A stretch of 64,000 nucleotides of DNA from NCBI GenBank assembly GCA_964561045.1, contig CAZLOL010000001.1, positions 23,450-87,449 on the forward strand. The letters run 5' to 3'. Below, piece by piece: positions 936 to 63,307 of this stretch (position 1 is its first letter; each line of letters begins with the position of its first letter). The notes below the pieces were generated by a model. That model worked only from the letters and a program-made list of their open reading frames with translations. It was not told the DNA's origin and searched no databases. This DNA is from an uncultured Ignavibacteriaceae bacterium. GTDB lineage: Bacteria > Bacteroidota > Ignavibacteria > Tepidaquicellales > Tepidaquicellaceae. Made by a program: the position numbers and the translations under genes.

Positions 936-1793
936 ATGAGTAAAATTACTTCTGAATCCGACTGGACTTTAGAAATAAAACCTGTTTCAGGTTGGTTCAA
1001 CTTTCATCTCAAGGACGTATGGAGATACCGCGATCTGCTTTTTATGTTTGTAAGAAGAGATTTTGTTTCAGTATATAAACAGACAATTCTTGGACCATTC
1101 TGGTTTTTCCTTCAGCCAATCTTAACTACCATCACTTTTACGATTGTTTTCGGAAACATAGCAAAAATACCGACGGATGGAATTCCTCCTATACTTTTTT
1201 ATATGTCAGGAATTGTATGCTGGGGTTATTTTGCGGATTGCCTGACAAGAACGTCTTCAACTTTTATTGCCAATGCAAATATTTTCGGTAAAGTTTATTT
1301 TCCTAGGCTAGTAAGCCCTCTGTCTAATATAATTTCATTGCTGATGAAATTTGGAATTCAGATGTTACTTTTGATTGGATTCCTTATATATTTTAAATTA
1401 AACGGTTCTGATGTAAATCCAAATATATACATACTTTTAACACCTTATCTGATCTTTCTAATGGCAGGACTCGGGCTTGGATTTGGAATCATTGTATCTT
1501 CTCTTACAACAAAATACAGAGATTTGTCTTTTCTTGTAGGATTTGGAGTGCAGCTTCTAATGTACGCCACGCCGGTTATATATCCTTTATCGGCAGCACC
1601 GGAAAAATACCGATGGATAATTCTGGCAAATCCAATGACTGCAATAATTGATACATTCAGGTTTGCTTATCTTGGTGCAGGTACATTTAATGCCGGAAAT
1701 TTAATTTACAGCTCTGTTTTTATGCTGATAGTGATGGCAATAGGAATAGTGATATTTAACAGAGTTGAGAAAACATTTATGGATACTGTATAA
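936..1793 (+). CDS. wzm: ABC-2 type polysaccharide exporter permease (Wzm/TagG/KpsM family)
   Basis: 285 aa with about 6 hydrophobic helices. The N-terminal WRYRDLLFMFVRRDFVSVYKQTILGPFWFFLQP is the typical ABC-2 permease signature region. It lies directly upstream of a Wzt-type ATPase. Confidence 0.85.
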   Translation: MSKITSESDWTLEIKPVSGWFNFHLKDVWRYRDLLFMFVRRDFVSVYKQTILGPFWFFLQPILTTITFTIVFGNIAKIPTDGIPPILFYMSGIVCWGYFADCLTRTSSTFIANANIFGKVYFPRLVSPLSNIISLLMKFGIQMLLLIGFLIYFKLNGSDVNPNIYILLTPYLIFLMAGLGLGFGIIVSSLTTKYRDLSFLVGFGVQLLMYATPVIYPLSAAPEKYRWIILANPMTAIIDTFRFAYLGAGTFNAGNLIYSSVFMLIVMAIGIVIFNRVEKTFMDTV

Positions 1794-1803
1794 AAAATAT
1801 ACT

Positions 1804-2524
1804 ATGAGTGAAGTCATCAGAGTAGACGGTCTTTCCAAGTTATACAGGCTAGGACTTGTCGGTACAAGAACTATAGCTGAAGACCTTAACAGGTTATGGG
1901 CTAGATTTACCGGCAAAGAAGATCCGTATTTGAAAATAGGTGAAACAAACAACAGAATAGTAAAAGGTAAAACTGAATTTGTATGGGCTTTAAATGATAT
2001 TAATTTCGGGGTTAATCACGGCGAAAGATTCGGCATAATCGGAAAAAACGGTGCCGGAAAATCTACTTTATTGAAAATTCTTTCAAGAGTAGCTAGTCCT
2101 ACTAAAGGTTCTGTCAAAGTGAAAGGAAGAGTAGCAAGTCTTCTTGAAGTCGGTACCGGATTTCATCCTGAACTTACGGGAAGAGATAATATTTTTCTAA
2201 ACGGTTCAATTCTTGGTATGTCCCAAACTGAAATAAAAGGTAAGTTTGACAGTATAGTGGATTTCTCGGGAGTGGAAAGATATATAGACACACCGGTCAA
2301 AAGATATTCATCAGGAATGTATGTAAGACTGGCATTTGCAGTAGCAGCACATCTGGAACCGGAGATACTGATAGTAGATGAAGTGCTTGCAGTAGGGGAT
2401 GCGGAATTTCAAAAAAAATGTCTTGGCAAAATGCATGATGTATCCGAAAATGAAGGCAGAACAGTTCTTTTTGTAAGTCATAATTTACAGGCAATTAAGA
2501 ACCTGTGTCAGAAAACAATTATTT
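1804..2524 (+). repeat. Paralogous ~0.7-kb wzt NBD-coding segment, copy 1 of 3 (end approximate)
   Basis: It shares long nucleotide-identical runs with copy 2, e.g. aaaagatattcatcaggaatgtatgtaag and tttcaaaaaaaatgtcttgg. Its protein is colinear with copies 2 and 3. Confidence 0.7.
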
Positions 2525-3135
2525 TAAACAACGGGGAATTGTTTGCAAGCGGTCCGACTGCAGAGACATTAAATTCCTACAATGAACTTGTAAGGGATAT
2601 AAAAATAGATTCAAAAACTGAAGTAAATAATATTCTCAACAGAAGAGGAAACGGCAATATAAGATTTTCGGGGATTGATGTAATTGACAGACAGGGGAAG
2701 AGAAGATTTCAATATGATATAGGTGAGAGCATAAGATTTAAAATTTCCTATGAAGTATTTAAGGAGATGAAGGGTATCAGGATTATTGTTGCGCTTTTAT
2801 CGGGATTGTCAAGAGAATGTCTGACAGCAGCAAATTTTGAATTAACAAACAAAAGGATCTATCCGGGTTCAAAAGGAGAAATAGAACTGGAGTTTCCGGA
2901 CATATACATCAAACCCGGTGAGTATCCGTTATATTTTGAATTAATAGATTCAGAATTCAACTCATATTCAAAGGATGTTCTGGATGACTTAACAGCTCCG
3001 CTTGTCATTAAAGGCGGATCAAATGTCCGAAACACAGATTTTCATCCGGACATTCCATCGGGATTTTTTGCCATACCTTCCAGGATACTGGCAAATGAAG
3101 TAATATCTCACAGTATATTAAACGAGTCTGCTTAG
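1804..3135 (+). CDS. wzt: Polysaccharide ABC exporter ATP-binding protein with C-terminal extension (Wzt/TagH type), copy 1
   Basis: The ORF-track start 1765 overlaps wzm. The ATG at 1804 gives MSEVIRVDGLSKLYRLG, colinear with the two paralogs. Walker A GKNGAGKST, signature YSSGM, Walker B ILIVDEVLAVGD and H-loop FVSHN are present. About 190 aa of extra C-terminal domain follow the NBD. Confidence 0.9.
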   Translation: MSEVIRVDGLSKLYRLGLVGTRTIAEDLNRLWARFTGKEDPYLKIGETNNRIVKGKTEFVWALNDINFGVNHGERFGIIGKNGAGKSTLLKILSRVASPTKGSVKVKGRVASLLEVGTGFHPELTGRDNIFLNGSILGMSQTEIKGKFDSIVDFSGVERYIDTPVKRYSSGMYVRLAFAVAAHLEPEILIVDEVLAVGDAEFQKKCLGKMHDVSENEGRTVLFVSHNLQAIKNLCQKTIILNNGELFASGPTAETLNSYNELVRDIKIDSKTEVNNILNRRGNGNIRFSGIDVIDRQGKRRFQYDIGESIRFKISYEVFKEMKGIRIIVALLSGLSRECLTAANFELTNKRIYPGSKGEIELEFPDIYIKPGEYPLYFELIDSEFNSYSKDVLDDLTAPLVIKGGSNVRNTDFHPDIPSGFFAIPSRILANEVISHSILNESA

Positions 3136-3220
3136 TTCTGATTTTAAAGTACGGTATTGAATAATATTATATTTAAAAAAGTTTTCTTTTTTTAAAATAT
3201 TAAATAATACAAGTTAAATT

Positions 3221-4210
3221 ATGAGAACATTATTAAGTGATGATTTTTTAGACAAATCACCACCTCTTTATTCGGGAGGGGTCATATCAAATGTGCTTGG
3301 TCTTCATATTTTAAGAACAGTTTATTTAAATATCTGGAGAATGAAACCCAGAAAAGTCAGAAAGGAGATCAGACATTATGTTAATACTCTTGAAAAGGAA
3401 GGGATACTTATCATTCCGGATTTTTTCCCGAAAGAGCAATTCGATGAGATAAAAAAAGAATTTGATCAGACTTATTCAGGCTGGTCACCGTTTGACTTTA
3501 AGAAGGAAGAATTCTCAAAGAGACAAAATGATTTTCCTGAATATTTCCAGACGATAGCAGAAAAAATTACATCGCCAAATACACCTGCTTTCACAAAGTA
3601 TTTTGTCAACAATCCTTTAATAGATGAAATTACTTCTGCAGTTGTGCACAGGAAAAACCGTTTAACTCCGCATTATCATTTCTGGTATCTTCAGCGCAGG
3701 ACACTTGAGAACGAAAATGCAGATCACCTTCATTCAGCTGCTTTTCCTCATGCAGATGTACCTTACCCTACAATAAAAGTTTTTATGTATCTAAATGATG
3801 TGGATGAATCCAATGCTGCATACATTTACGCCAAAGGTTCACACAAGCTTACACTGAAAAGACTGCTGTTTGAATATAAGCTAAGCGTCAGATATGCAAA
3901 GACAAAAAATGACATTGTTACCAATGAGGATATTGCTTCGCTCGGATATTATCCTGAGAATATATGCGGAAAAGCAAACACATTATTTATTTCAAATAAC
4001 ATGGGCTATCACAACAGAGGAGAGTTTAAAACACTTGAGCCCAGACTTACAGCCCAGCTGGATTACAGGCATCTTGAAACATGGAGAAACAAATTAGCAA
4101 GGAAAGATTCATCTCTGATTTCAAAAATATCCAGAAGAATAGTAAAATCCATAGACAAAGCTAAAAAAGAAAAACTGCGTGCAAGTCTCAGTCATAATAA
4201 CATGTCATAA
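3221..4210 (+). CDS. PhyH-like Fe(II)/2-oxoglutarate dioxygenase family protein (motif-level call)
   Basis: 329 aa. It has an HxD motif (AAFPHADVPY) and a distal His/Arg region (NNMGYHNRGEF), with the spacing expected for the PhyH double-stranded beta-helix fold. Confidence 0.45.
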   Translation: MRTLLSDDFLDKSPPLYSGGVISNVLGLHILRTVYLNIWRMKPRKVRKEIRHYVNTLEKEGILIIPDFFPKEQFDEIKKEFDQTYSGWSPFDFKKEEFSKRQNDFPEYFQTIAEKITSPNTPAFTKYFVNNPLIDEITSAVVHRKNRLTPHYHFWYLQRRTLENENADHLHSAAFPHADVPYPTIKVFMYLNDVDESNAAYIYAKGSHKLTLKRLLFEYKLSVRYAKTKNDIVTNEDIASLGYYPENICGKANTLFISNNMGYHNRGEFKTLEPRLTAQLDYRHLETWRNKLARKDSSLISKISRRIVKSIDKAKKEKLRASLSHNNMS

Positions 4211-4823
4211 TTACGCCCGTTATCTTTCAAGGGCAATAAGAAGTGTTATCAATCAAACGCTTGACAGGGATGATTATGAGATCATAGTGGTAAACGATGC
4301 GAGCACAGATGAAACCGAAAAAGTAATGAAAACTTATTCGGGGAGGATCAAGCCTTTAACTTTAACAAAAAATGCCGGGCTTGCCGCCGCTCGAAATGAG
4401 GGCATTAAATCTGCTCTCGGAAGATATGTAGTAAATCTGGATGCTGACGATTATGTTGATGAAAATTTATTGCTGGTTGAAATGTTATTCCTCAATTTTA
4501 ATTCAACATGGGATGCTGTATCATGTGACTATTATTTAGTAGATGAAAATGAAAAGCATATAGGCAGGATCAGCGGTTCAGAAAAGCCGATTGCCTGCGG
4601 TGTAATGTTCAGAACGGATCTTCTATTTGGAATTGGTTTGTACGATGAAAATTTTAAAATGAGGGAAGATGAGGATCTGCGTTTAAGATTTGAAAAGAAT
4701 CATAATATAAAAAATTTAGAACTACCGCTTTACAGATACAGGAAGCATGACAATAACATGACAAATAATAAGGAAGGCATGGCTAAATACAAAAAAATAC
4801 TTAAGTCCAAACACAAAGATTAA
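4179..4823 (+). CDS. Glycosyltransferase family 2 (short, GT-A domain only)
   Basis: GTG start with a 32-nt overlap on the upstream gene. Motifs: VSVIITCHNYARYLSRAIRSVINQT, YEIIVVNDASTDET, NLDADD. Confidence 0.8.
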   Translation: MQVSVIITCHNYARYLSRAIRSVINQTLDRDDYEIIVVNDASTDETEKVMKTYSGRIKPLTLTKNAGLAAARNEGIKSALGRYVVNLDADDYVDENLLLVEMLFLNFNSTWDAVSCDYYLVDENEKHIGRISGSEKPIACGVMFRTDLLFGIGLYDENFKMREDEDLRLRFEKNHNIKNLELPLYRYRKHDNNMTNNKEGMAKYKKILKSKHKD

Positions 4824-4844
4824 CAACAATCCCCTTCTTTAAAT

Positions 4845-5585
4845 TTGAGTAACATTGCCTTCATAGCTGCAAGGATGGGTTCAGAAAGACTGCCCGGTAA
4901 AGTAATCAAAAAACTCTGCGGAATTCCTTCTTTAGTTCATATTTTTAATATATTAAAAGATTGCAGGAAGCTTGATGATTTTGCAGTTGTCACAACTGTG
5001 CTTGCAGAAGATGATATTATTGAAAAGATCTGCAGAGACAATTCCGTAAAAATAATAAGAGGTTCAGTTCATGATGTGCTGGACAGATTCAGGTTAGCAG
5101 CAGAAATATTGAAACCGGACAGGATCGTCAGGGTTACGGGTGATGATCCGTTAATGGATCCTGAAATCATTGATCATGTAATAGAAGAGCACTGCAAGGG
5201 AAACTTTGATTATACATCAAACATTGTTGATCGGACATATCCCAGAGGGATGGATACGGAAGTGATCGAGCTCGAAGCGCTTAAAAGATGCTGGAGGAGT
5301 TCTTCGGATAAAGATGATCATGAACACGTAACTCTTTATATAAGAAGACACCCTGAACTTTTCAGGATTCATAGTGTCAGAAAAGAAGGAAAATCCATTG
5401 ATGATCTCAGATTATGTCTTGATACCGAGGAGGATTACAATTTAATTTCAGAAATTTACAATAGTCTTTATAAGAACGAACCTATAAGGCTGAAAGACAT
5501 TAATGAATTTCTTGAAAAAAATCCTGAGCTCAGTGAATTAAATTCCTGTATAGAACAAAAAGCAGTTAAGGGAAAAATTTTTTAA
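4845..5585 (+). CDS. Cytidylyltransferase, CMP-KDO/CMP-nonulosonate synthetase family (SpsF/PseF-like), copy 1
   Basis: TTG start is forced, because the conserved IAFIAARMGSERLPGKV begins at residue 4. Further motifs: VTGDDPLMDP, PRGMDTEV, DHEHVTLY, LRLCLDTEEDY. Confidence 0.8.
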   Translation: MSNIAFIAARMGSERLPGKVIKKLCGIPSLVHIFNILKDCRKLDDFAVVTTVLAEDDIIEKICRDNSVKIIRGSVHDVLDRFRLAAEILKPDRIVRVTGDDPLMDPEIIDHVIEEHCKGNFDYTSNIVDRTYPRGMDTEVIELEALKRCWRSSSDKDDHEHVTLYIRRHPELFRIHSVRKEGKSIDDLRLCLDTEEDYNLISEIYNSLYKNEPIRLKDINEFLEKNPELSELNSCIEQKAVKGKIF

Positions 5586-5616
5586 TTAAAAAATATACTA
5601 ATCTACATAAATCTTA

Positions 5617-6279
5617 ATGATTAAACTTCCGGATTTCAGCAGGGCTTACGAGTATGAGAATGAATTTTATCTCTCCTGCGACAAGCAGAGAATTGGCAAA
5701 CTAATAGCTCATTATGAACTTTTTAAAATGTCACAGAACACAGAGGGTGAAATTATTGAATGCGGCGTATTTAAAGGAGCATCACTCGTGAGGTTTGCAA
5801 TGTTCAGAAAATTATTTCAAAGTAAATTTGAAAAGAAGATTATAGGTTTTGATTCATTTGCAGAATTTCCGCATACTGATTTTGAAGCTGATAAAAAGTT
5901 AAGGGATCACATTGTAAAGGAAGCAGGCGAGCAAAGCATATCGACCGATCAGCTGATGGAAGTTCTGAAAAATAAGAGCTGTGATTATTCAGTTGAACTG
6001 ATAGCAGGAGACATTACATTAACTTTACCTGAATATGTTAAAAAGAATCCTGACCTGAAAATATCACTTCTGAATCTTGATACTGATATTTACGAACCAT
6101 CCGTTACGATCCTTGAAAACTTATACCCGAGGCTGCAGAAAGGCGGAATACTTATTCTTGATGATTACAATGTCTTTCCGGGAGAGACAAAAGCAGCGGA
6201 TGATTATTTCAAAGGAAAGAATGTAAGCATAAAAAATTTTCCATTCAGCAATACTCCATATTATCTTATAAAAGAATAA
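5617..6279 (+). CDS. TylF/MycF-family (macrocin-type) SAM-dependent O-methyltransferase
   Basis: Motifs: ECGVFKGASLVRF ... LNLDTDIYEPSVTILENLYPRLQKGGILILDDY. Confidence 0.7.
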   Translation: MIKLPDFSRAYEYENEFYLSCDKQRIGKLIAHYELFKMSQNTEGEIIECGVFKGASLVRFAMFRKLFQSKFEKKIIGFDSFAEFPHTDFEADKKLRDHIVKEAGEQSISTDQLMEVLKNKSCDYSVELIAGDITLTLPEYVKKNPDLKISLLNLDTDIYEPSVTILENLYPRLQKGGILILDDYNVFPGETKAADDYFKGKNVSIKNFPFSNTPYYLIKE

Positions 6280-6306
6280 TAATTATTAAAAAATTTTTAA
6301 ATTAGT

Positions 6307-7281
6307 TTGACAATTCTTTTCATCGGTCTTGGTTCGATAGGTCAGAGACATCTGAGAATATTAAAAAATATTGGAGAGCATAGTATTTTAGCAATTCGTT
6401 CCGGAAAAGGAAAGAATGCTGCCTCTGCGTTGGTTGAAACTGAATATGCTGACATTAAAGAACTCGCCGGTACAGATATTGACGGGGCAGTGATATCCAA
6501 TCCTACGTCATTACATATTGAAACAGCCATAGAAATTGCAAAGCTTGGGATACCACTATTCATAGAAAAACCTCTTGGAAAAAACCTTGACAGGATAAAT
6601 GAATTAGAGAAAATTGTAAAAGAGAAAAATGTTCCTGTTCTAATGGGTTATAATCTGTTGCATCATCCGTGTATTGAGGCCATAAAAAAATTTACGGACG
6701 AAGGAAGAATCGGAAAAGTCATTGCAGCAAGATCTCAATTCGGAACATTTATGCCTGACTGGCATAAAGATGAAGATTTTAAAAATTCTTATGCTGCAAA
6801 AGTATCTCTGGGCGGAGGCGTTATTTTAACATCTATTCACGAGCAGAACTATTTGACCGACTTATTCGGGAAAGCAGAGCATGTGAAGGCAATGGAGGTC
6901 GGCGGAAAAAATATTGGCATAGAAGCGGAAGAAGGTGTTGAGATTTTAATGAAACATACAAGCGGAGTTGTTTCCAACATTCATCTGAATTTTTTTCAAA
7001 AGCCGTATTACAGAAATTGCCAGGTTATAGGAACAGAGGGAACTTTGTTCTGGGATTTTATGATTCCCGAATTAAAAATAATGTATAAAGATAAAACGGA
7101 AATAATTAAATTTGGAAACGGTCCTATGGAATTATTAGAAGCAAGTTATATAAAACAAATGCAGCATTTTCTGGATATCATCGAAAATAGATCTGAACCA
7201 AGAATGAATCTGACAAGCGGAATAGAAGATTTGAAAGTTGCTTTAAAAATATTATCGGAAACAGGAAGAAATTATAATTAA
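6307..7281 (+). CDS. Gfo/Idh/MocA family NAD(P)-dependent oxidoreductase, copy 1
   Basis: TTG start. The N-terminal Rossmann motif ILFIGLGSIGQRHL begins at residue 3, and FIEKP is present. Confidence 0.8.
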   Translation: MTILFIGLGSIGQRHLRILKNIGEHSILAIRSGKGKNAASALVETEYADIKELAGTDIDGAVISNPTSLHIETAIEIAKLGIPLFIEKPLGKNLDRINELEKIVKEKNVPVLMGYNLLHHPCIEAIKKFTDEGRIGKVIAARSQFGTFMPDWHKDEDFKNSYAAKVSLGGGVILTSIHEQNYLTDLFGKAEHVKAMEVGGKNIGIEAEEGVEILMKHTSGVVSNIHLNFFQKPYYRNCQVIGTEGTLFWDFMIPELKIMYKDKTEIIKFGNGPMELLEASYIKQMQHFLDIIENRSEPRMNLTSGIEDLKVALKILSETGRNYN

Positions 7282-7287
7282 AAAAAT

Positions 7288-8109
7288 ATGGAATTAAGAA
7301 CAACAAATCCCGAAGAAATAGATTTCAGGAAAAAATTTGATCTGAAAGATAAAGTTATTATAGTAACAGGCGGAATGGGGTTGATAGGCAGGGCATTTGC
7401 CGAAGGATGCGCTCAGTACGGAGCAAATGTTGTAATAGCAGACAGAAAAGGTGCAGGATCAGAAGAGCATGCAGGCAATATGGCAAAAAGATTTAACAGA
7501 GAGATGCTCGGAGTTACTTTTGATGTTGGTAAAAGAGAGGATGTCGAAAAGTTGAAGTCTTATGTACTTGATAAATTCGGAAGGATAGACGGACTTGTGA
7601 ACTGTCATCAGAATAAGACAGCAAAATTTTTTGCAAAGTATGAAGAATATAAGGATGAGGACTGGGATGCTGTGATCGAAACAAATCTGAAAGGCACATA
7701 TCTTACCTGTCAGGTTATCGGCTGTTATATGGCAGAGATAGGAAGAGGATCCATAATAAATATGCCGTCAACATATTCAGTAGTTGCGCCAAATCAGAAT
7801 TTATACAAAGGAACAAGCATAGGTTGTCCTGCTGCATATTCGGCATCTAAAGGAGGTGTAATGGCACTGTCGCAGTATCTGTCTACATACTGGGCAGATA
7901 AAGGAGTGCGTGTAAATCAAATCACGCCTCACGGAGTATGGAACAATCATGAGGAACAGTTTGAAAAGAATTTTGCCAACTTCTCTCCATTGAAAAGAAT
8001 GAGTTACAATCATGAAGTAGCCGGAGCGGCTATTTTTTTATTGTCGGATGCTTCGAGTTATGTGACGGGACATAACCTTGTAGTTGACGGCGGATGGACG
8101 GCGTGGTAA
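7288..8109 (+). CDS. Classical short-chain dehydrogenase/reductase (SDR)
   Basis: Glycine-rich loop VTGGMGLIGRAF and active site YSASKGG (YxxxK). Confidence 0.85.
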   Translation: MELRTTNPEEIDFRKKFDLKDKVIIVTGGMGLIGRAFAEGCAQYGANVVIADRKGAGSEEHAGNMAKRFNREMLGVTFDVGKREDVEKLKSYVLDKFGRIDGLVNCHQNKTAKFFAKYEEYKDEDWDAVIETNLKGTYLTCQVIGCYMAEIGRGSIINMPSTYSVVAPNQNLYKGTSIGCPAAYSASKGGVMALSQYLSTYWADKGVRVNQITPHGVWNNHEEQFEKNFANFSPLKRMSYNHEVAGAAIFLLSDASSYVTGHNLVVDGGWTAW

Positions 8110-8151
8110 AACATAATTTCAAATTACAAATTACTAATAGATAAAATAAAA

Positions 8152-8460
8152 TTGGTAAGATATACTTTTCTGATATGTATTACGCTGGTCAATTACTTAT
8201 TAATTTTAAATTTTATTTTTGATAACAATAAATATTACAACAAAGAGTTGTTTGTAGATTCATTATGGGTATTTGTTTCTCCTGTTATATTTTTTATTCT
8301 GATGTTAATACTTTTTGTTGAAACATTTTTTAATATAAATAAATTGAAAAATAATAATATTTGCAAATTGTCTTATTCTTATAACTTAATACTTTCTATT
8401 ATTCATACTTTTAATTCCTTCAGGTATATTAATGCAATGGTTGACGGAGGATTGATTTGA
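8152..8460 (+). CDS. Doubtful small hydrophobic ORF in a very AT-rich gap (may be non-coding)
   Basis: TTG start, 102 aa, rich in Asn/Ile/Leu/Phe, with 2-3 hydrophobic stretches and no recognisable motif. It sits in the only ~400-bp gap of this gene block. Confidence 0.2.
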   Translation: MVRYTFLICITLVNYLLILNFIFDNNKYYNKELFVDSLWVFVSPVIFFILMLILFVETFFNINKLKNNNICKLSYSYNLILSIIHTFNSFRYINAMVDGGLI

Positions 8461-8511
8461 AAAAAACTAAGTCTATTTATTTTTTATGATTACAGAAATT
8501 TAAAAATATTT

Positions 8512-9564: not shown

Positions 9565-9611
9565 GAAATTATAAATATAAATTAAAAAAAATTAATTAGG
9601 AGAATTATAAA

Positions 9612-10250: not shown

Positions 10251-10252
10251 TA

Positions 10253-11987: not shown

Positions 11988-11989
11988 CT

Positions 11990-14356: not shown

Positions 14357-14367
14357 CAATAAATTTA

Positions 14368-17516: not shown

Positions 17517-17550
17517 TAAATTTCGAAACTCATTGAGTATAAAAGATCAA

Positions 17551-19197: not shown

Positions 19198-19227
19198 ATA
19201 TTCCAAAAAAAATATTAATCCAAAATT

Positions 19228-19911: not shown

Positions 19912-19936
19912 GGAATTTGAATTTGAAGAAACGGAA

Positions 19937-22224: not shown

Positions 22225-22227
22225 TTC

Positions 22228-25685: not shown

Positions 25686-26500
25686 CAGACACTATTAATC
25701 CGGCAGATATAATTCAAAAAGCAGTAACTGATCTTGCAGCTTCATGGAAAGAGAGCGGAATTGAAGAGGGAGATACGGTTCTGCTGCACAGTTCACTTTC
25801 CGGATTTATAAAAAAATACAGAACAGAGGGGATTCCAATCTTACCCAATGATATTCTGAAGTCATTCATGATTTCTGCAGGAGAAAAAGGGACACTGATC
25901 TTTCCGACATATAATTTTGATTTTACAAAGGGCAGGACATTCGATATTCTGAATACAAGATCAGAAACCGGAGCATTGTCCGAAGCAGCAAGACTTCATC
26001 CTGAGTCTGTAAGAACAGGTCATCCTCTTTTTTCATTTGCCGTAATCGGATATCACAGGAATATTTTTGAGGATCTCAGCAATTACAGCGCATTCGGGAA
26101 GGATTCGCCTTTTGCAAAACTGCTTGAGCTAAAGGGGAAAATAGCTGCGCTTGATGTTGCAGGGGAAAACTGCATGACATTTTATCATCATGTGGAAGAG
26201 ATGGAAAATGCACCAAACAGATACCATAAGATATTCAGAGGAAATTACATAGATAAGCACGGAGTCCAAAGTGAAAAAGAATTTAATGTTTACTCACGAA
26301 AAATTGATGAGGGAGTTGAGACGGATGTCAAGCCAATGGAAGAATATCTTTGGTCAAAGAGAATGTATTCTGGAAACCGGCCAGGAGAAGGAAACTGTCT
26401 TCATGTGATCAAAGCTGAAAGGGTTTATGAAGAAGCATCCGCAGTCATAAGAGGAGGAAGATCACTTGGTATGCTTTATAAAATCACTAAAGACAATTGA
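25682..26500 (+). CDS. AAC(3)-family (aminoglycoside 3-N-acetyltransferase-like) N-acyltransferase
   Basis: Motifs VLLHSSLSGF, GTLIFPTYNFDF and TGALSEAARLHPESVRTGHPLFSFAVIG. There is a 4-nt overlap with the upstream gene. Confidence 0.6.
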   Translation: MTDTINPADIIQKAVTDLAASWKESGIEEGDTVLLHSSLSGFIKKYRTEGIPILPNDILKSFMISAGEKGTLIFPTYNFDFTKGRTFDILNTRSETGALSEAARLHPESVRTGHPLFSFAVIGYHRNIFEDLSNYSAFGKDSPFAKLLELKGKIAALDVAGENCMTFYHHVEEMENAPNRYHKIFRGNYIDKHGVQSEKEFNVYSRKIDEGVETDVKPMEEYLWSKRMYSGNRPGEGNCLHVIKAERVYEEASAVIRGGRSLGMLYKITKDN

Positions 26501-27780
26501 AGGAACAGATCGAAAAATATTTTGACAGATTATGGCCGCTGAACAGAAGCCTGACGGGCAATGGAAACCGTGAGACACTAAAAATATTATCAGAGTTAGC
26601 AGATATAAAGATCACAGAAGTCCCGTCAGGAACTGAATGCTTTGACTGGACAGTTCCTCCTGAATGGAATGTAAAAGAAGCCTGGATAAAGGACAGCAAT
26701 GGAAATATAATAGCAGATTTCAGTGCTAACAATTTGCAACTGCTTGGATATTCTGAAAAATTCTCAGGACATTTAAGTTTGAATGAGTTAAAAGAGCATC
26801 TGTATTCTTTGCCGGAACAGCCCGAAGTAATTCCATATCTTACCTCTTATTATAAAAAGCGATGGGGATTTTGCATTAGTCATAATCAGCTTATTAAATT
26901 AAAGGAAGGAACTTATGAAGTATTAATCGATTCTGAATTAGATCAGGATGGATCTATGACAATTGGTGAAGCAATTCTGGATGGAGACACAGACAAAGAA
27001 ATTTTATTATCCACTTATATATGCCATCCATCAATGGCAAACAATGAACTCTCCGGACCATTGACCGCTTCATTTATTTACAAAAAATTAAAAGAAAAGA
27101 AAAACAGAAGATATACTTACAGAATACTTTATGTTCCTGAAACCATCGGCAGCATTTATTATTTATCCAGGCACGGAGATCATTTGAAAAAAAAATTAGC
27201 AGCAGGATTTGTAATAACTTGTGCGGGTGACAAAGGTAATTTCACTTACAAGAAGAGCAGATCCGGAAATACAGTAACAGACAGAGCTTCAGAGCTGATC
27301 TTGAAAGAGACGGAAAGAAATTATAACATTGAAGATTTTTTTCCTACCGGCAGTGATGAAAGGCAGTATTGTTCACCAGGATTTAATCTCCCTGTCGGGT
27401 CATTAATGAGAACAAGATACGGAAAGTATAAAGAATATCACACTTCTGCCGATAATAAAGAATTTATTTCTTTCAAAGCAATGGAGGAATCAGTTTATAA
27501 GTATCTTGAAATATTAGATTTAATTGAAAATAATTTTACATACATCAACAGACTGCCTCACTGTGAACCTCAGCTTGGGAAGCGAGGACTTTATCCTACA
27601 TTAGGTTCGCAAAAAGATACTGCTGAATTTGTAAATGCCTTAATGTGGGTATTGAATTTAACAGACGGTTCAAATGATCTTATAGATATTTCAAACAGAA
27701 GCAGCATACCAGTTAAAGTTATGATCAAAGCTGCGGAAGGGCTGCTGAGTAGCGGACTAATTGAAATCAAATCTGAATAA
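26497..27780 (+). CDS. Aminopeptidase-like (M28-related) domain protein, DUF4910/COG4310-like
   Basis: TTGA start/stop overlap. Motifs YFDRLWPLNRSLTGNGNRETL, EVPSGTECFDWTVPPEWN and ICHPSMANNELSGP. Confidence 0.5.
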   Translation: MKEQIEKYFDRLWPLNRSLTGNGNRETLKILSELADIKITEVPSGTECFDWTVPPEWNVKEAWIKDSNGNIIADFSANNLQLLGYSEKFSGHLSLNELKEHLYSLPEQPEVIPYLTSYYKKRWGFCISHNQLIKLKEGTYEVLIDSELDQDGSMTIGEAILDGDTDKEILLSTYICHPSMANNELSGPLTASFIYKKLKEKKNRRYTYRILYVPETIGSIYYLSRHGDHLKKKLAAGFVITCAGDKGNFTYKKSRSGNTVTDRASELILKETERNYNIEDFFPTGSDERQYCSPGFNLPVGSLMRTRYGKYKEYHTSADNKEFISFKAMEESVYKYLEILDLIENNFTYINRLPHCEPQLGKRGLYPTLGSQKDTAEFVNALMWVLNLTDGSNDLIDISNRSSIPVKVMIKAAEGLLSSGLIEIKSE

Positions 27781-27791
27781 ATGAAATTGCA

Positions 27792-28781
27792 GTGGTAAAA
27801 TATTTAATCACAGGATCATCGGGATTTGTAGGGAAGAATTTTTTAGAATATCTGAATGATAATACATCAGATACTTCCGTACTTGGAATTGACATTGCTG
27901 AAACTGAGTACAATACGAAGGAATACAGTAATCTTAAGTTTAAATTTGTAAGAGCTGATTTAAGAGAGAGGGACAAGGTCAGCAAGCTTATTTATGATTT
28001 CAATCCGAAATATATACTTCATCTTGCTTCATACAGCAGTGTAGCAGGAAGCTGGAGAAATCCAAACAATTGTTTCCAGAATAATGTGAATATCTTTTTA
28101 AATCTACTTGAAGATATAAGAAAGACCGGTACTGACTGCAGAATTATTTCTGTAGGTTCTTCGGATGTATACGGGATCGTAAAATTTTCAGAACTGCCGA
28201 TAAGGGAAGAGCAGTGTTTGAATCCATTGAGTCCTTTTGGAATCGCCAGACAAAGCCAGGAATTACTTTCACAACTGTATTCTAATATATACGGAATGGA
28301 CATAGTAATTACAAGATCATTTAATCATATAGGTCCCGGTCAGAATGAGAGTTTTGCAATATCATCTTTTGCAAAACAGATAATGGATTTAAAAAGAAAT
28401 AACGGAAATGAATTCATAGTAACAGGAGATGTATCCGTAGTAAGGGATTTCATTGATGTCAGGGATGTGGTTAGGGCATATCATCAGTTATTTTTAAAAG
28501 GTAAAAGAGGTGAGATCTATAATGTATGCAGCGGTTGTGGAATTTCCCTGCACAATATAATACAGATGCTTTGTGAAATTATGGACATCAGATTCAGCAT
28601 CAGGGAAGATAAAAAATTAAGAAGACCGGCGGATATACCTGTGATTGTGGGATGCAATGACAAGTTAAAGAAACAGACAAGCTGGACAAACGAAATAATG
28701 CTTGAGGACAGCCTGAGAGATATTCTGAAATATTATTTAAACCGTGATATTAAAGTCAAGAAGCCAGTGTACAGAAATTAA
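27792..28781 (+). CDS. Extended SDR (NAD-dependent epimerase/dehydratase fold) with non-canonical active-site residues
   Basis: GTG start. The fold motifs ITGSSGFVGKNF, VGSSDVYG and RSFNHIGPGQ are present. However, the YxxxK position reads SPFGIARQ (cct ttt gga atc gcc aga). Confidence 0.75.
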   Translation: MVKYLITGSSGFVGKNFLEYLNDNTSDTSVLGIDIAETEYNTKEYSNLKFKFVRADLRERDKVSKLIYDFNPKYILHLASYSSVAGSWRNPNNCFQNNVNIFLNLLEDIRKTGTDCRIISVGSSDVYGIVKFSELPIREEQCLNPLSPFGIARQSQELLSQLYSNIYGMDIVITRSFNHIGPGQNESFAISSFAKQIMDLKRNNGNEFIVTGDVSVVRDFIDVRDVVRAYHQLFLKGKRGEIYNVCSGCGISLHNIIQMLCEIMDIRFSIREDKKLRRPADIPVIVGCNDKLKKQTSWTNEIMLEDSLRDILKYYLNRDIKVKKPVYRN

Positions 28782-28816
28782 TTTTCAAATTTTATATTTA
28801 GATTAGGATCGACTTT

Positions 28817-29537
28817 ATGAGCGTCGTTATAAAAGCAGAAAATATATCAAAACTTTACAGACTTGGGATTCTTTCTTCAAGAACCATTGCTCAGGATGTT
28901 AATCGTTTTATTGCGAGGATTAGAGGTAAGGAAGATCCTTATTTGAAAGTTGGTGAAATAAATAACAGAGAAAAAAAAAGCAGCGGTCAGTTTATATGGG
29001 CATTAAAGGACATTAATTTTAAAATTAATTCAGGTGAAATAATCGGTATAATCGGAAAAAACGGAGCTGGTAAATCAACATTATTAAAGATCTTATCTAG
29101 AGTTACAACACCGACAACAGGTAATGTCAGAATCAAAGGAAGAGTTGCAAGTCTACTGGAAGTTGGAACCGGCTTTCATCAGGACCTTAGCGGAAAAGAA
29201 AATATATTTCTGAACGGTTCAATACTTGGCATGACAAAAAATGAAATAAAGTCAAAGTATGATGAGATAGTTGAGTTCTCCGGTGTGGAAAAATTTATTG
29301 ATACACCTGTAAAAAGATATTCATCAGGAATGTATGTAAGGCTTGCATTTGCAGTTGCAGCATATTTAGAACCGGAGATATTAATAGTTGATGAAGTATT
29401 AGCCGTAGGCGATGCAGAGTTTCAAAAAAAATGTCTTGGGAAAATGCACGATGTGTCAGCTAAGGAAGGAAGGACGGTAATTTTTGTAAGCCATAATATG
29501 GGAGCAGTCAGGAGTCTTTGCACTTCATCAATTTTAC
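28817..29537 (+). repeat. Paralogous wzt NBD-coding segment, copy 2 of 3 (end approximate)
   Basis: Nucleotide-identical runs with copy 1, and a protein colinear with copies 1 and 3. Confidence 0.7.
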
Positions 29538-30109
29538 TTGAAAGAGGGATGATAAAGAACATCGGGAATACAGAAAGTATAATAACTGAATATCTTAATA
29601 TAAGTTCGGAAAACTTTGAAGCATACAGAGAATTCAATGATCAGAATTCAGAGACTTACTTTAAAAAAATATCAGTGAAACCTGAAAATTCAAACTTTGC
29701 ATGCAGTGAAATAGAAGTATTGAAATCATTTAATGTTGAATTTAATTATTTTCTGAAAAAAAATATTCCCGGTCTAAGTCTTGGATTTTCAATTTATTCA
29801 AAGAACGGAATGAAAATACTTTACGACTCACAGGCAGTTAAAAAGCTTTCAGGAGATGCGGAAAACAGATCCGGATATTTCACAGCGGAAGTAACAATTC
29901 CGGGCATGTTTCTTGCACCCGGCAGTTATTTCATTAATGCAGCACTTCATATAGAAAATGTGCAGCTTCTTGATTTTAAAGAAAATGTAATAAGTTTCAA
30001 CATTATTGAAAGCGGCTCACAGCTTCAAAAATTCAGCGGAAAAGATATGGGTGTAATCATAGCTGATTTCAAATGGAGAAGTATAAATGAAAACATTACA
30101 ACTAACTAA
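28817..30109 (+). CDS. wzt: Wzt/TagH-type ABC exporter ATP-binding protein with distinct C-terminal domain, copy 2 (no adjacent permease)
   Basis: Motifs MSVVIKAENISKLYRLG, GKNGAGKST, YSSGMYVRLAFAVAA, ILIVDEVLAVGDAEFQKKCLGK and FVSHN. The C-terminal ~180 aa are unlike those of copies 1 and 3. Confidence 0.9.
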   Translation: MSVVIKAENISKLYRLGILSSRTIAQDVNRFIARIRGKEDPYLKVGEINNREKKSSGQFIWALKDINFKINSGEIIGIIGKNGAGKSTLLKILSRVTTPTTGNVRIKGRVASLLEVGTGFHQDLSGKENIFLNGSILGMTKNEIKSKYDEIVEFSGVEKFIDTPVKRYSSGMYVRLAFAVAAYLEPEILIVDEVLAVGDAEFQKKCLGKMHDVSAKEGRTVIFVSHNMGAVRSLCTSSILLERGMIKNIGNTESIITEYLNISSENFEAYREFNDQNSETYFKKISVKPENSNFACSEIEVLKSFNVEFNYFLKKNIPGLSLGFSIYSKNGMKILYDSQAVKKLSGDAENRSGYFTAEVTIPGMFLAPGSYFINAALHIENVQLLDFKENVISFNIIESGSQLQKFSGKDMGVIIADFKWRSINENITTN

Positions 30110-31180
30110 GTGATAAAGATATTCATAAGTTTTGATTATTACGGAGCAGGAAATATTGGAGATGATCTGATGCTGGACGGATTTTTGAAAGAAATGAAAT
30201 CTTCTAATTTTGAATTTTACTGTTCACTTCCAAGAGATCCATATTCGCAGAAAATAAGGTTTCCTGAAATAAATTTCGTAAGCAGTGAAGACCGGGTTGA
30301 AGCAGCTAATCTTTGCAATATCTGGATCGGGATCGGAGATACTCCAATTCAGGTCAAATCAGGAAACTGGTTTCTGGATCATTTGCTAAAAGATTCAGAG
30401 CTTAAAAAGGGAAAGAAAATAAAATATTATTTTATCGGAATAGGTGCTGAATCTGAAGCCGTTTCGGAAAAAGCAAATTACAAAATCGTTCTGGATGAAA
30501 TAGATCACATATGGACAAGAGATAAAGCAACGACTGATACTTTAATAAATGGGATCGGCATAAGTGCTGAAAGAATTACAACTTCATCTGATTTGGCAAA
30601 TATATCTTTAAGTAATATATACCTAAGCAGAGCAAGAAATGAAAAAAACAAATATGATATTGGAATGTGTTATTTTGATGAAAATGCTGAATCCGTAAAT
30701 TTGGATGCAGTAAAGATATTTTTAAAAAATGCTGTTAGGAATAGCAAAAGAGTTCTTGCTTTCGGAAATGAAGTCAGAGAAAAAGGAAAGTATGAATACA
30801 GAATCTATATGAATATGTTTACAAGGCTTGAAAGATTATTTGGAGGTGTAAAATATTATCAGCCTGATTATTACAACCTGAATAATGTTTCAGATCTTGT
30901 CCGGCATTACTCAACATGTGAAGTAATAATGACATCAAGATTTCATTCATTATTAACTGCAGCTTGGGCTGGCTGTAAAGTAGTTGCTCTTGAGCGCTCT
31001 TCAAAAGTAACTGCATTGGCGGAAGACTTAGGCATTAAAGAAGTTAAAAAACCATTTACTGCTGAAAAATTAATGCAGTCTTATAATGAATCTGCCGTAA
31101 TAGATATAAACATTCTCAAAAGATTTCATGAGCAGGCTGTGCGCAGTACAGAAAGTTTGAAAAAACATATATTCAGTTAA
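30110..31180 (+). CDS. Polysaccharide pyruvyl transferase family protein (CsaB/WcaK-like)
   Basis: The GTG start abuts the wzt copy 2 stop. Motifs FDYYGAGNIGDDLMLDGF and IMTSRFHSLLTAAWAGCKVVAL. Confidence 0.6.
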   Translation: MIKIFISFDYYGAGNIGDDLMLDGFLKEMKSSNFEFYCSLPRDPYSQKIRFPEINFVSSEDRVEAANLCNIWIGIGDTPIQVKSGNWFLDHLLKDSELKKGKKIKYYFIGIGAESEAVSEKANYKIVLDEIDHIWTRDKATTDTLINGIGISAERITTSSDLANISLSNIYLSRARNEKNKYDIGMCYFDENAESVNLDAVKIFLKNAVRNSKRVLAFGNEVREKGKYEYRIYMNMFTRLERLFGGVKYYQPDYYNLNNVSDLVRHYSTCEVIMTSRFHSLLTAAWAGCKVVALERSSKVTALAEDLGIKEVKKPFTAEKLMQSYNESAVIDINILKRFHEQAVRSTESLKKHIFS

Positions 31181-31219
31181 AATACATCCAGAGAAAAAAT
31201 TAATTTATTTATTTATACA

Positions 31220-32401
31220 TTGATCAGAGATGTAAAAATATTCATCAGGGAATTTCTTAAAGATATTTTAAATAAATATTTTAGGAGAAAATCAATTTTT
31301 ACAAAAAAGAATACTTTACTGATAGTAAGAATAGATGCCATTGGCGATTATATATTGTTCAGGAATTTCATAAAAGTTATTAAAGAATCTGAAAGATTCA
31401 AAAATTACAGTATAACATTATTAGGTAATAAAATCTGGAAAGATCTTGCTGAAGAACTTGACAAAAAATATATAGATAAATTTATCTGGATTGATGTTAA
31501 TAATTTTTTTAAAAATTCAGAATGGGCACAAACTTATTCTGTCTTATTTAAATTACATTATTTCGGTTTTGAAACAATATTGATCCCTAAAGATACGCGG
31601 AACTGGAGAAGTGAATTTATTGCTGATCATGCAGGAGCTAAGAATATACTTATGGATGAAAATAATTCATTCATTCCCGAAAACGAATCCGGTAATGTAT
31701 TAGATAATTCCCATAAAGGATCATTAAGTAATCATCAATCTTTATTATTTCAGTTTAACAGAAATAAGTATTTTACTGAGAAATTGATCAGAAGCAGTGT
31801 TCACATTCAAAAGCCATTTATTGAGGATGTAAGACCGGAAAAATTAAATGGTAATTTAAGGAGAGATTATATAGTAGTATTTCCGGGAGCGAGTGATATA
31901 AAAAAAATGTGGTCAGCGGAAAATTTCGGAATTCTTTGTAAAAAAATTAATGAAGTTTATAATATAAGTATATTGATCTGCGGAAGTGAATCTGATAAAG
32001 CTGCGGCAAAAAAAATAATGGAAATAGCAGGAATTCAAAACATAGAAGATAAAACAAGAGACGGAAGCTTATCTGAACTTGTAACCTTAATATCAAATGC
32101 AAAATTATTAATAACAAATGATACTTGTGCCCTTCATATAGGAGCAGCATTAAATACAAAAACAATCTGTATAACCAACGGTCTACATTTCGGAAGATTT
32201 CATCCTTATCCTGAAGATATGTCGGATTTTGTAAGGACATTGTATCCCGATAAAGATCTTATCATAAACGGGAACTTTGAATATCTTGCGAGAAAATTTC
32301 ATTTAAGCTCTGATCTTGATATAAATCTAATTTCCCCTGACGAGGTTTTTTATTCTGTCAGAGAATTCTTACAAACAGAAAGCGCAATTCAATTTGGATA
32401 A
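31220..32401 (+). CDS. Glycosyltransferase family 9 (heptosyltransferase-like)
   Basis: TTG start. Motifs LLIVRIDAIGDYILF, VVFPGASDIKKMWSAENF and LISNAKLLITNDTCALHIGAALNTKTICI. Confidence 0.7.
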   Translation: MIRDVKIFIREFLKDILNKYFRRKSIFTKKNTLLIVRIDAIGDYILFRNFIKVIKESERFKNYSITLLGNKIWKDLAEELDKKYIDKFIWIDVNNFFKNSEWAQTYSVLFKLHYFGFETILIPKDTRNWRSEFIADHAGAKNILMDENNSFIPENESGNVLDNSHKGSLSNHQSLLFQFNRNKYFTEKLIRSSVHIQKPFIEDVRPEKLNGNLRRDYIVVFPGASDIKKMWSAENFGILCKKINEVYNISILICGSESDKAAAKKIMEIAGIQNIEDKTRDGSLSELVTLISNAKLLITNDTCALHIGAALNTKTICITNGLHFGRFHPYPEDMSDFVRTLYPDKDLIINGNFEYLARKFHLSSDLDINLISPDEVFYSVREFLQTESAIQFG

Positions 32402-32425
32402 AATGAAAAAAGTACAGAAAAAGAA

Positions 32426-33146
32426 ATGAGCGTAGTTATAAGAGCAGAGAACATTTCTAAACTTTACAGGTTAGGGATAATAACCTCAAAGTCCATAGCA
32501 CAGGATCTAAACCGGTTTATTGCCAGGATAAGAGGAAAAGAAGATCCTTATTTAAAAGTTGGACAGTTAAATGAAAGAGATAAGAAAACCGAAGGTCAGT
32601 TTGTCTGGGCGCTGAAAGATATAAATTTCGAAGTTCTGGACGGTGAGATTCTTGGGATCATAGGAAATAACGGAGCAGGTAAATCGACATTATTAAAAAT
32701 ATTATCACGAGTTTCATCGCCTACTACAGGTGATATTAAAATAAAAGGGAGAGTAGCAAGCCTTCTGGAAGTTGGCACGGGATTTCATCCTGAGCTTACC
32801 GGTACAGAGAATATATTCCTTAACGGATCAATCCTTGGAATGACAAGAAATGAAATAAAAAAAAAATTCGATGAGATAGTGGACTTTTCTGGAGTTGAGA
32901 AATTTATAGACACACCCGTAAAAAGATATTCATCGGGAATGCATGTACGGCTGGCGTTTGCTGTTGCAGCTCATCTTGATCCTGAAATACTTATTGTAGA
33001 TGAAGTGCTTGCCGTCGGTGATGCGGAATTTCAGAAGAAATGTCTTGGAAAGATTCAGGATGTTTCGAGTAAAGACGGGAGAACAGTTTTGTTTGTGAGT
33101 CATAATATGGCTGTATTGTCAAATTTATGTTCATCTGTAATCGTAC
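32426..33146 (+). repeat. Paralogous wzt NBD-coding segment, copy 3 of 3 (end approximate; most diverged at third codon positions)
   Basis: The protein is colinear with copies 1 and 2, but the nucleotide similarity is visibly lower. Confidence 0.6.
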
Positions 33147-33715
33147 TTAAAAACGGGATGATTGATTTTCCAAAAGGACAGGCTAAAGAAGGGATTCAGT
33201 TTTATTTAACTGACAGAAAAGAAAAAACTAAAATATCGCTGAGAGACAGAAAAGACAGGAAGGGGGATGGAAAGATAAGGCTTACACATTTTGAAATATT
33301 GAACTCCGATAATATAAATCTAGAAACAACGATCTCAGGGCAGCATATAAAGTTCAGGATCATGTATGAATGTGTAGATAATCCAAACCCGAAAAATATT
33401 AGTACTGCACTTTCAATTACACGTTCAGATGGATTTCTTGTAACTGTCTTAAGCAATGAAATTTCCTCTGCTCAATTCCCATCAATTCCACAGAAGGGAA
33501 GTTTTATTTGTACTCTCGATAAGCTGCCGTTAACTTCAGGTAATTATTTAATTAATTTAATAGTACATCAGAATAACATAATACAGGACTGGATACAGGA
33601 AGCGGCATTTTTCAATGTTGAGGACGGAGATTTTTATAATACCGGAAAGATAGTTCCTTCAACTCATAGAAGTATTTTACTGGAACAGCAATGGCAAACG
33701 GAGGCAATAAATTAA
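32426..33715 (+). CDS. wzt: Wzt/TagH-type ABC exporter ATP-binding protein with distinct C-terminal domain, copy 3 (no adjacent permease)
   Basis: Motifs MSVVIRAENISKLYRLG, GNNGAGKST, YSSGMHVRLAFAVAA, ILIVDEVLAVGDAEFQKKCLGK and FVSHN. The C-terminal domain is divergent (RKGDGKIRLTHFEILNSD...). Confidence 0.9.
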   Translation: MSVVIRAENISKLYRLGIITSKSIAQDLNRFIARIRGKEDPYLKVGQLNERDKKTEGQFVWALKDINFEVLDGEILGIIGNNGAGKSTLLKILSRVSSPTTGDIKIKGRVASLLEVGTGFHPELTGTENIFLNGSILGMTRNEIKKKFDEIVDFSGVEKFIDTPVKRYSSGMHVRLAFAVAAHLDPEILIVDEVLAVGDAEFQKKCLGKIQDVSSKDGRTVLFVSHNMAVLSNLCSSVIVLKNGMIDFPKGQAKEGIQFYLTDRKEKTKISLRDRKDRKGDGKIRLTHFEILNSDNINLETTISGQHIKFRIMYECVDNPNPKNISTALSITRSDGFLVTVLSNEISSAQFPSIPQKGSFICTLDKLPLTSGNYLINLIVHQNNIIQDWIQEAAFFNVEDGDFYNTGKIVPSTHRSILLEQQWQTEAIN

Positions 33716-40821: not shown

Positions 40822-40852
40822 TGTTTTCATTATGAATAAAGTGAGATAACAG

Positions 40853-41890: not shown

Positions 41891-41896
41891 TTATTA

Positions 41897-63304: not shown

Positions 63305-63307
63305 ACC

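Follow-up and report, generated by a model that had tools for sequence, protein, structure and literature searches.

A giant surface-glycan locus of an uncultured Ignavibacteriaceae bacterium holds a single gene, wzm, for the membrane channel of its ABC (ATP-binding cassette) transporter and three genes, wzt, for the partner ATPase, and we consider it on balance probable, judging from sequence comparison, that this one Wzm channel is common to several Wzt proteins that read differently capped glycans. The DNA analysed (GenBank assembly GCA_964561045.1, contig CAZLOL010000001.1, positions 23,450 to 87,449 of the forward strand; 64,000 nt, called the window throughout) comprises most of this locus; the host is of class Ignavibacteria and the pathway is ABC-transporter-dependent. 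In the textbook form of that pathway there is one Wzm2Wzt2 complex per glycan, and the C-terminal domain of Wzt is the export checkpoint. Here, wzt1 adjoins wzm, while wzt2 and wzt3 sit 27 and 31 kb downstream of the sole wzm in tight same-strand cassettes. The first consists of wzt2, a pyruvyltransferase gene and a gene for a GT9-like glycosyltransferase, the second of wzt3, a methyltransferase gene and a glycosyltransferase gene, and neither contains a wzm:

936..1793 (+): wzm, ABC-2 permease (PF01061)
1804..3135 (+): wzt1, 443 aa, ABC_tran and Wzt_C type 1; 10 bp 3′ of wzm, its canonical partner
28817..30109 (+): wzt2, 430 aa, ABC_tran and Wzt_C type 2; without adjacent wzm
30110..31180 (+): polysaccharide pyruvyltransferase (PF04230 and a CsaB-like NCBIfam match), candidate capping enzyme of the wzt2 cassette
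31220..32401 (+): GT9-like glycosyltransferase (PF01075) of the wzt2 cassette
32426..33715 (+): wzt3, 429 aa, ABC_tran and Wzt_C type 3; without adjacent wzm
33719..34471 (+): class I S-adenosylmethionine (SAM) methyltransferase (Pfam methyltransferase families), candidate capping enzyme of the wzt3 cassette
34545..35699 (+): Glyco_trans_1_2 glycosyltransferase (PF13524), end of the wzt3 cassette

All three wzt genes, first noticed in a reading of the bare sequence made without database searches (below, the sequence-only reading), are intact and full length at the positions given there. Each encodes a nucleotide-binding domain (NBD) that matches PF00005 and a Wzt_C domain (PF14524) that scores 42 (Wzt1), 48 (Wzt2) and 58 bits (Wzt3) against a curated Pfam cut-off of 30.4. 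The first ~240 residues are colinear, as had been seen by eye: all the motifs listed at the time are present, the alignment is gap-free over its first 246 columns, and GxNGAGKST, YSSGM, ILIVDE and SHN, from the set of Walker A, Q-loop, signature, Walker B and H-loop, do not vary among the three proteins, the best PDB matches of which are Wzt, TarH and TagH. Pairwise identity among the three is 71-79% in the NBD. Copies 1 and 2 do share the nucleotide-identical runs reported earlier, of 17, 29 and 20 nt; these fall within the most conserved motifs, and the two genes are 73% identical in nucleotide sequence overall and ~52% at third codon positions. We considered recent duplication or gene conversion as the source of the NBD similarity and rejected it: the copies agree at 70-75% of all nucleotides and at 45-52% of third positions, and the NBD identity equals the phylum background, i.e., that between Wzt of different Bacteroidota genera (median 67-68%, ~78 loci).

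The last ~180-190 residues had been described as differing almost completely between the copies. In terms of identity (14-16% between pairs) this is so, but the domains are homologous: when the C-domain profiles of Wzt1 and Wzt3 are aligned with hhalign, the probability is 99% (E 9.5e-18). That these regions are Wzt-type carbohydrate-binding domains is borne out by the Pfam scores above cut-off and by comparison with the Wzt of Aquifex aeolicus. With phmmer, residues 55-408 of Wzt2 align to both domains of that protein (8dku; E 7e-68). The isolated C-domains of Wzt1 and Wzt3 found no PDB match by sequence; for these two proteins, we compared AlphaFold2 models, made from alignments of 46-47 sequences, by Foldseek. 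The best match of either model is full-length A. aeolicus Wzt, 8dku_A, over 419 columns for Wzt1 (pLDDT, the predicted local distance difference test, 79; E 1.5e-34) and over 431 columns for Wzt3 (pLDDT 84; E 2e-38), while structures comprising only an NBD score ~1e-26 against the same models, versus 1e-34 to 1e-38 for the full-length protein. The C-domain type of Wzt2 is rare, with 29 representatives at E<=1e-10 among 1.84 billion.

The window contains one ABC-2 permease gene, as the sequence-only reading had it. Its product matches PF01061 (E 1.5e-15) and, by sequence, TarG (6jbh) and A. aeolicus Wzm (6m96) in the PDB (E ~1e-17). A tblastn search with Wzm found no second wzm in the window, and in the six-frame translation of the window a Wzm-family hidden Markov model (HMM), built from 108 sequences and run with all filters off, had its sole match at 936-1790 (E 1e-145), the next hit being at E 0.039. 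The count covers the 64-kb window, or ~73 kb with ~9 kb of extra upstream sequence taken from a relative; in the relatives, which are metagenome-assembled throughout, we inspected flanks of 10 kb around the homologous genes. Wzm is 85-98% identical across many metagenome-assembled genomes (MAGs) labelled Ignavibacteria or Bacteroidota. Within the lineage, its conservation equals that of the Wzt1 NBD and exceeds that of whole Wzt2 or Wzt3. On the contig from SRR19611632, for instance, Wzm is 96% identical to its counterpart in the window, and Wzt1, Wzt2 and Wzt3 are 86%, 77% and 89% identical. Phylum-wide, Wzm is only ~50% identical as against ~68% for the NBD.

A hydropathy scan gave only one other polytopic membrane open reading frame (ORF), at 38321-39841 (+; 506 aa, ~11 predicted transmembrane segments), which we examined as a hidden or fused permease and dismissed. 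Pfam and NCBIfam give no match at E<=1, the ORF shows no internal duplication, and neither tblastn nor the Wzm HMM, whose list of matches does not include it, reveals similarity to Wzm. The ORF is conserved at two related loci, L003 (87%) and L088 (504 aa), and is absent from the locus version on contig Ga0119901_1000007 described below. Its product may belong to an unrecognised family of Wzy/WaaL/GT-C-like enzymes, something not expected within an ABC-dependent locus.

The layout recurs in other assemblies. On the logan contig SRR19611632_15043 (171,741 bp), wzm lies at 75186, wzt1 at 76054, wzt2 at 103083 and wzt3 at 106688, that is, in the same 1:3 arrangement and spacing as in the window. 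We therefore rejected an assembly artefact, since the layout is found on this independent 172-kb contig and short identical contigs occur in other samples. JGI contig Ga0119901_1000007 (309,097 bp; also GCA_035437265.1) carries wzm, wzt1 and, directly after the epimerase gene, one mid-locus wzt of the Wzt3 type (72-73%), a 1:2 arrangement, and is without the cassette of wzt2, pyruvyltransferase and GT9-like genes. Locus L003, with the closest wzt2 ortholog (81%), shows the opposite state: the wzt2, pyruvyltransferase and GT9-like genes are followed directly by the homolog of ORF 35674, and wzt3, the methyltransferase gene and the glycosyltransferase gene are missing from an otherwise syntenic stretch; its wzm and wzt1 fall outside the stretch seen, so that the ratio is inferred. 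At L004 and L005 there come, after the wzt2 cassette, a second wzt whose C-domain differs again, an unknown gene of 435 aa and a glycosyltransferase gene.

The differences thus fall at one hot spot, between the epimerase gene (27792-28781) and ORF 35674, where there are one or two cassettes that each start with a complete wzt and lack a wzm. Orthologs of wzt1 (443 aa) adjoin wzm in every relative examined, and no wzm was found within 10 kb of the mid-locus wzt genes in these relatives. Orthologs of wzt2 occur at L003, L088, L004 and L005, in all four with the pyruvyltransferase gene directly 3′, and every wzt2 cassette seen has a GT9-like gene, so that throughout the locus family the Wzt2 type goes together with both of these enzymes. 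Orthologs of wzt3 are 72-93% identical; at L088, an ortholog of the methyltransferase gene (75% identical) follows wzt3. A Glyco_trans_1_2 glycosyltransferase gene accompanies every wzt3-type or second mid-locus wzt (L004, L005, L088, L091) and is absent from L003. Across these genomes, the cassettes are gained or lost as units of wzt, enzyme and glycosyltransferase genes at one position, without a permease.

How unusual a wzt without its own wzm is can be gauged from a survey in which one genome per species was searched with the alignment of the three Wzt proteins. It yielded 80 loci, 76 of them with informative upstream sequence. In 62 of the 76, wzm lies <=200 bp upstream of wzt, and in nine more it lies 0.3-5.1 kb upstream (together 71/76 within 5.1 kb). 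No wzm was found within >=5 kb upstream at the remaining five, three of which (L003, L004, L005) are orthologs of the present locus. The adjacency of one wzm per wzt is seen for wzt1, with its 10-bp gap, and not for wzt2 or wzt3. Beyond the locus family, these C-domain types are found in ordinary wzm-wzt pairs, the Wzt3 type at L095 and L096 and the type nearest to Wzt2 at L097; because Wzt2- and Wzt3-type genes there keep an adjacent wzm, the wzm-less state is specific to loci that already hold a same-strand wzm-wzt1 pair. The survey also brought up a wzt without detectable wzm for >=10 kb on both sides, following a Wzc-like C-terminal domain (L009, 8418-11281; Bacteroidetes MAG OH_HBlB_157), and one without detectable wzm in the ~5 kb upstream (L043); these may be other orphan or shared readers. 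The converse layout is found at L028 (a Paludibacteraceae MAG), where two tandem wzm genes (3185-4917; 46% identical to Wzm of the window) lie ~5 kb upstream of a single wzt (10001-11275).

The foremost alternative to a common channel is that dedicated Wzm partners of Wzt2 and Wzt3 are encoded elsewhere in the genome, the locus being a fusion of glycan clusters with unlinked permease genes. In some bacteria (L028, L062, L070), wzm and wzt do lie a few kb apart, L028 even having two tandem wzm genes for one wzt, and the sequence seen, ~73 kb around the locus plus 10 kb on either side of the homologs in relatives, leaves room for such genes, a point that weighs against channel sharing. We nevertheless regard distant partners as unlikely, since wzm lies upstream of wzt within 5.1 kb in 71 of the 76 surveyed loci and the Wzt2- and Wzt3-type genes outside the family have theirs next to them. 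Moreover, the cassettes come and go without a permease, and any unlinked wzm would need to appear and disappear along with them.

[quoted passage not shown] Transferred to the present locus, the conserved head would supply a Wzc-like protein, the sole Wzm subunit and the canonical ATPase, Wzt1, and the two plug-in cassettes at the hot spot would each add a complete wzt with its own deeply diverged carbohydrate-binding domain, a tailoring enzyme and a glycosyltransferase. Each Wzt would homodimerise via its strand-swapped C-domains, and the homodimers would compete for the same Wzm dimer. Each C-domain would read a non-reducing-end cap made by the enzymes of neighbouring genes, and the single channel would be the way out for two or three lipid-linked glycans that differ in their caps, or for one glycan in differently capped forms. 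The sharing of Wzm, the competition of homodimers and the identities of the caps are all inferred here from gene content and homology.

The extra Wzt proteins might instead not form separate transporters: they could enter mixed dimers with Wzt1 on the same Wzm, or act mainly as cytoplasmic cap-binding or quality-control factors for one multiply decorated glycan. It is in keeping with this that all the genes lie in one apparently co-transcribed cluster, that the motifs of the NBD dimer interface are invariant among the three Wzt and that in A. aeolicus Wzt a single pocket, made up of a C-domain and the NBD of the same chain, is in use at a time (PMC9445017). The C-domains dimerise by strand exchange, however (PMC9445017), which makes heterodimers unlikely at 14-16% identity; relatives have one, two or three readers, so that a fixed heteromer is not required; and a purely binding role sits badly with fully conserved ATPase motifs and an NBD under strong constraint (below). 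We take this alternative to be improbable, a little more so than unlinked permease genes.

One long transcription unit including wzt2 and wzt3 fits the organisation of the locus, because the gaps around these two genes measure 0-39 bp, no terminator-like sites were found between genes and, in relatives, a NusG-like gene stands at the head of the locus; promoter-like matches are at chance level. The extra copies show no decay: no wzt of the window and no ortholog examined is truncated or has lost a motif, and all three genes are under purifying selection. The ratios of nonsynonymous to synonymous substitution (dN/dS, Nei-Gojobori method), which are rough values because dS is saturated (>1), lie at 0.02-0.06 in wzm and the NBDs and at 0.05-0.28 in the C-domains overall; wzt2 has 0.03-0.06 in its NBD and 0.11-0.24 in its C-domain, and wzt3 has 0.03-0.15.

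Bootstrapped neighbour-joining (distance-based) trees, inferred separately for NBD and C-domain, bear on the domain swapping for which such a phylogeny had been suggested. The C-domain of Wzt3 groups with those of L095 and L096 (100%) and with that of the second wzt of L004/L005 (96%), and the C-domain of Wzt2 groups with L097 (64%). The NBD of Wzt3 sides with Wzt2, being 78.7% identical to it, 80.0% to the Ga0119901 ortholog and 71.6% to L095. The two trees do disagree, then, but the signal is modest; it suggests that the histories of NBD and C-domain are partly decoupled, by a domain swap or by NBD homogenisation between wzt2 and wzt3. Although glycan loci are mosaic and the two domain trees disagree, it is very improbable that wzt2 and wzt3 are functionless leftovers of recombination heading for decay, given that every copy and ortholog examined is full length with intact motifs, that dN/dS is far below 1 in both domains (dS >1) and that the arrangement persists across genomes with Wzm differing by 2-15%.

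The proposal of one channel with several readers is thus carried by the conserved wzm-less cassettes, the carbohydrate-binding domains and the signs of selection, but not by the similarity of the NBDs, to which the sequence-only reading had also appealed. Several observations weigh against the proposal, the saturated dS mentioned above among them. The similarity of the NBDs is at the phylum background and is therefore weak evidence for interchangeability. The Wzt1 NBD is 75% identical to that of a Chitinophagaceae Wzt and 71-72% to its own paralogs; because the three NBDs are no closer to one another than to the Wzt of other genera, we see no sequence signature of their co-adaptation to one Wzm. 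Such co-adaptation was also sought in the trees and is not supported there: the clade of locus-family NBDs is weakly supported (46%) and that of the mid-locus copies reaches 64%, and the Wzt1 NBD is nearer to the Chitinophagaceae Wzt. A further set of points concerns the caps. No WbdD/WbbB-like coiled-coil terminator was recognised in the locus. On Ga0119901_1000007, the Wzt3-type gene is followed by two glycosyltransferase genes, not by a methyltransferase gene. Outside the family, a link between the Wzt2 type and a pyruvyltransferase was not upheld, L097 having an unrelated 816-aa protein in its place, and a link between the Wzt3 type and a methyltransferase across lineages is weak, the neighbour at L095 being a distant class I methyltransferase (22% identity). 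The assignment of caps, which follows from gene adjacency alone, is the weakest part of the model.

With that proviso, candidate cap enzymes are encoded near each wzt: a TylF-type methyltransferase and a Capsule_synth-like protein near wzt1, the pyruvyltransferase and GT9-like enzyme with wzt2, and the SAM methyltransferase with wzt3. The candidate cap for Wzt1 would be a methyl group or a nonulosonic/ulosonic acid, for Wzt2 a pyruvate ketal on the sugar added by the GT9-like enzyme, and for Wzt3 an O-methyl group. A more specific version of the shared-channel proposal is a plug-in reader system, in which cassettes of Wzt, capping enzyme and glycosyltransferase are swapped at one hot spot and dock on one conserved Wzm, with the Wzt2 type reading a pyruvylated terminal sugar; we put it forward tentatively, as a real possibility that falls somewhat short of being probable. 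At L097, a GT9-like gene (28% identity, E 2e-15) is also found 3′ of the Wzt2-type wzt. The 816-aa protein encoded there (9247-11697), directly after wzt and before the GT9-like gene, has no Pfam match and shows nucleotidyltransferase-like GS...DxD motifs; it is a candidate novel chain terminator.

The remainder of the window belongs to the same single-strand surface-glycan cluster, with ~63 ORFs >100 aa in the 64 kb, nearly all on the + strand and densely packed, at a G+C content of ~0.35. Besides the genes listed above, it comprises:

1..797 (+): 3′ end of a gene for a Wzc-like tyrosine kinase of polysaccharide co-polymerase class 2a (PCP-2a; AAA_31/ParA matches), ~750 aa, starting before the window
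3221..19911 (+): nonulosonic-acid-type sugar module with candidate capping enzymes (Pfam; order kept in relatives), encoding a PhyH-like dioxygenase, a GT2 glycosyltransferase, two CMP-sugar synthetases (CTP_transf_3), a TylF-type O-methyltransferase, NeuB, a DegT aminotransferase, a GNAT protein, an amidase, a Capsule_synth (KpsC/S-like) transferase and short-chain dehydrogenases/reductases
19937..28781 (+): phosphonate and amino-sugar module (Pfam), which stops at the cassette hot spot, encoding a GT2 glycosyltransferase, a phosphoenolpyruvate (PEP) mutase-cytidylyltransferase fusion, a phosphonopyruvate-decarboxylase-like thiamine pyrophosphate (TPP) enzyme, an iron-dependent alcohol dehydrogenase, a TagF-like Glyphos_transf protein, Antibiotic_NAT, DUF4910/DUF2172 and the epimerase

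On the identical short contig L001, the full 750-aa Wzc-like gene, with Wzz, GNVR and AAA_31 domains, lies immediately 5′ of wzm, and relatives are alike. The order at the head of the locus is common to all relatives seen: genes for an SLBB protein, a NusG-like protein, an epimerase, an unknown protein and Wzc, then wzm and wzt1, continuing with GT2, CMP-sugar synthetase and TylF genes and onwards. L089 (1867-9859) and L083 (1778-9843) additionally have a second Wzc-like gene, which is divergent, along with genes for a small SLBB protein and for a NusG-like (UpxY/LoaP-like) protein. Export and regulation components of the Wzy-pathway type (the Wzc-type PCP-2a kinase, SLBB and NusG-like proteins) are thus combined with a Wzm-Wzt exporter.

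The 19937..28781 module is syntenic at L003, L004, L005, L088 and L091, at 50-91% amino-acid identity. Its phosphonate set at 20923-25685 (+), i.e., the PEP mutase with an N-terminal cytidylyltransferase-like domain, the TPP enzyme, the iron-dependent alcohol dehydrogenase and the TagF-like Glyphos_transf protein, is conserved at the same five loci; its presence suggests that the glycan bears a phosphonate, for example 2-hydroxyethylphosphonate. Some 28 kb more follow 3′ of the wzt3 cassette, with genes for aminotransferases, formyltransferases, methyltransferases and at least 10 glycosyltransferases (Pfam). Within this part, 39889-43799 and 62615-63982 (+) hold two formyltransferase-like genes and genes for GNAT-like, WbqC-like and PglD-like hexapeptide acyltransferase proteins, a gene content that indicates N-formylated or N-acylated amino sugars. 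No initiating transferase, ligase or outer-membrane route was found in the window, and for this reason we leave the class of product broad: O antigens, capsules or other glycoconjugates may be made.

If one Wzm indeed serves several readers, the specificity of export could be changed by adding an ATPase subunit instead of a whole transporter, and moves of small cassettes would diversify surface-glycan repertoires. Wzm would then be generic enough for several NBD-reader subunits, and an ABC exporter would be multiplexed by alternative NBD subunits. Reading of pyruvate by the Wzt2 type would be a cap class not yet known for a Wzt domain. The locus would also offer natural reader/cap pairs (pyruvate-, methyl- and nonulosonic-acid-linked) for cap-recognition studies and glycoengineering, in a lineage that is common in wastewater and sediment metagenomes and the envelope glycans of which are uncharacterised.

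The closest known systems are the cap-dependent exporters (Escherichia coli O9a/Klebsiella pneumoniae O3, O12, O4 and O7; A. aeolicus WzmWzt, 7k2t/8dku), which likewise combine an ABC-2 permease with an ATPase that carries a C-terminal beta-sandwich carbohydrate-binding domain, and have tailoring enzymes (a methyltransferase, an ulosonic-acid-type transferase) encoded in the same locus. Whereas those systems have one wzt adjoining one wzm, there are three wzt per wzm here (two in relatives), with C-domains that look unrelated; two of the three lie 27-31 kb away in exchangeable cassettes, and no terminator of the WbdD/WbbB type is recognised. The C-terminal domain reportedly sets the specificity between E. 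coli O8 and O9a (Cuthbertson et al., 2005). The Wzt of Klebsiella O1/O2 is not known to have a carbohydrate-binding domain and owes its versatility to a lack of cap reading, whereas versatility here would come from multiple dedicated readers. The likeness to K. pneumoniae O1/O2 is that one Wzm-Wzt exports several glycoforms there and that a pyruvyltransferase acts at the non-reducing end (PMC10629545); terminal pyruvate added by WbbZ halts polymerisation of this ABC-pathway O antigen in vitro (PMC10629545). In the literature examined, we found no description of a pyruvate cap being recognised by a Wzt domain.

Among ABC importers, one multitask ATPase, MsiK or MsmK, serves many permeases. The rule of one NBD gene per permease is broken there too and subunits are mixed within the ABC family, but the proportions are the reverse of those proposed for the present locus, in which one exporter permease would be served by several ATPases and the reader is part of the ATPase. 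A cluster with more wzt than wzm is also on record for Massilia violaceinigra, an unrelated betaproteobacterium, where two wzt beside one wzm, one of them without a verified domain, are the subject of a passing annotation remark in a report that holds no analysis of C-domains, cassettes or conservation (PMC9834719). A full-text literature search, which did not cover the 2019 census of Wzt-linked carbohydrate-binding modules by Mann, Kimber and Whitfield, found no description of one wzm with several wzt that bear such modules. Set against these systems, the parts of the present locus are canonical, and its new elements are the stoichiometry, the reader cassettes without wzm and a possible pyruvate-linked reader.

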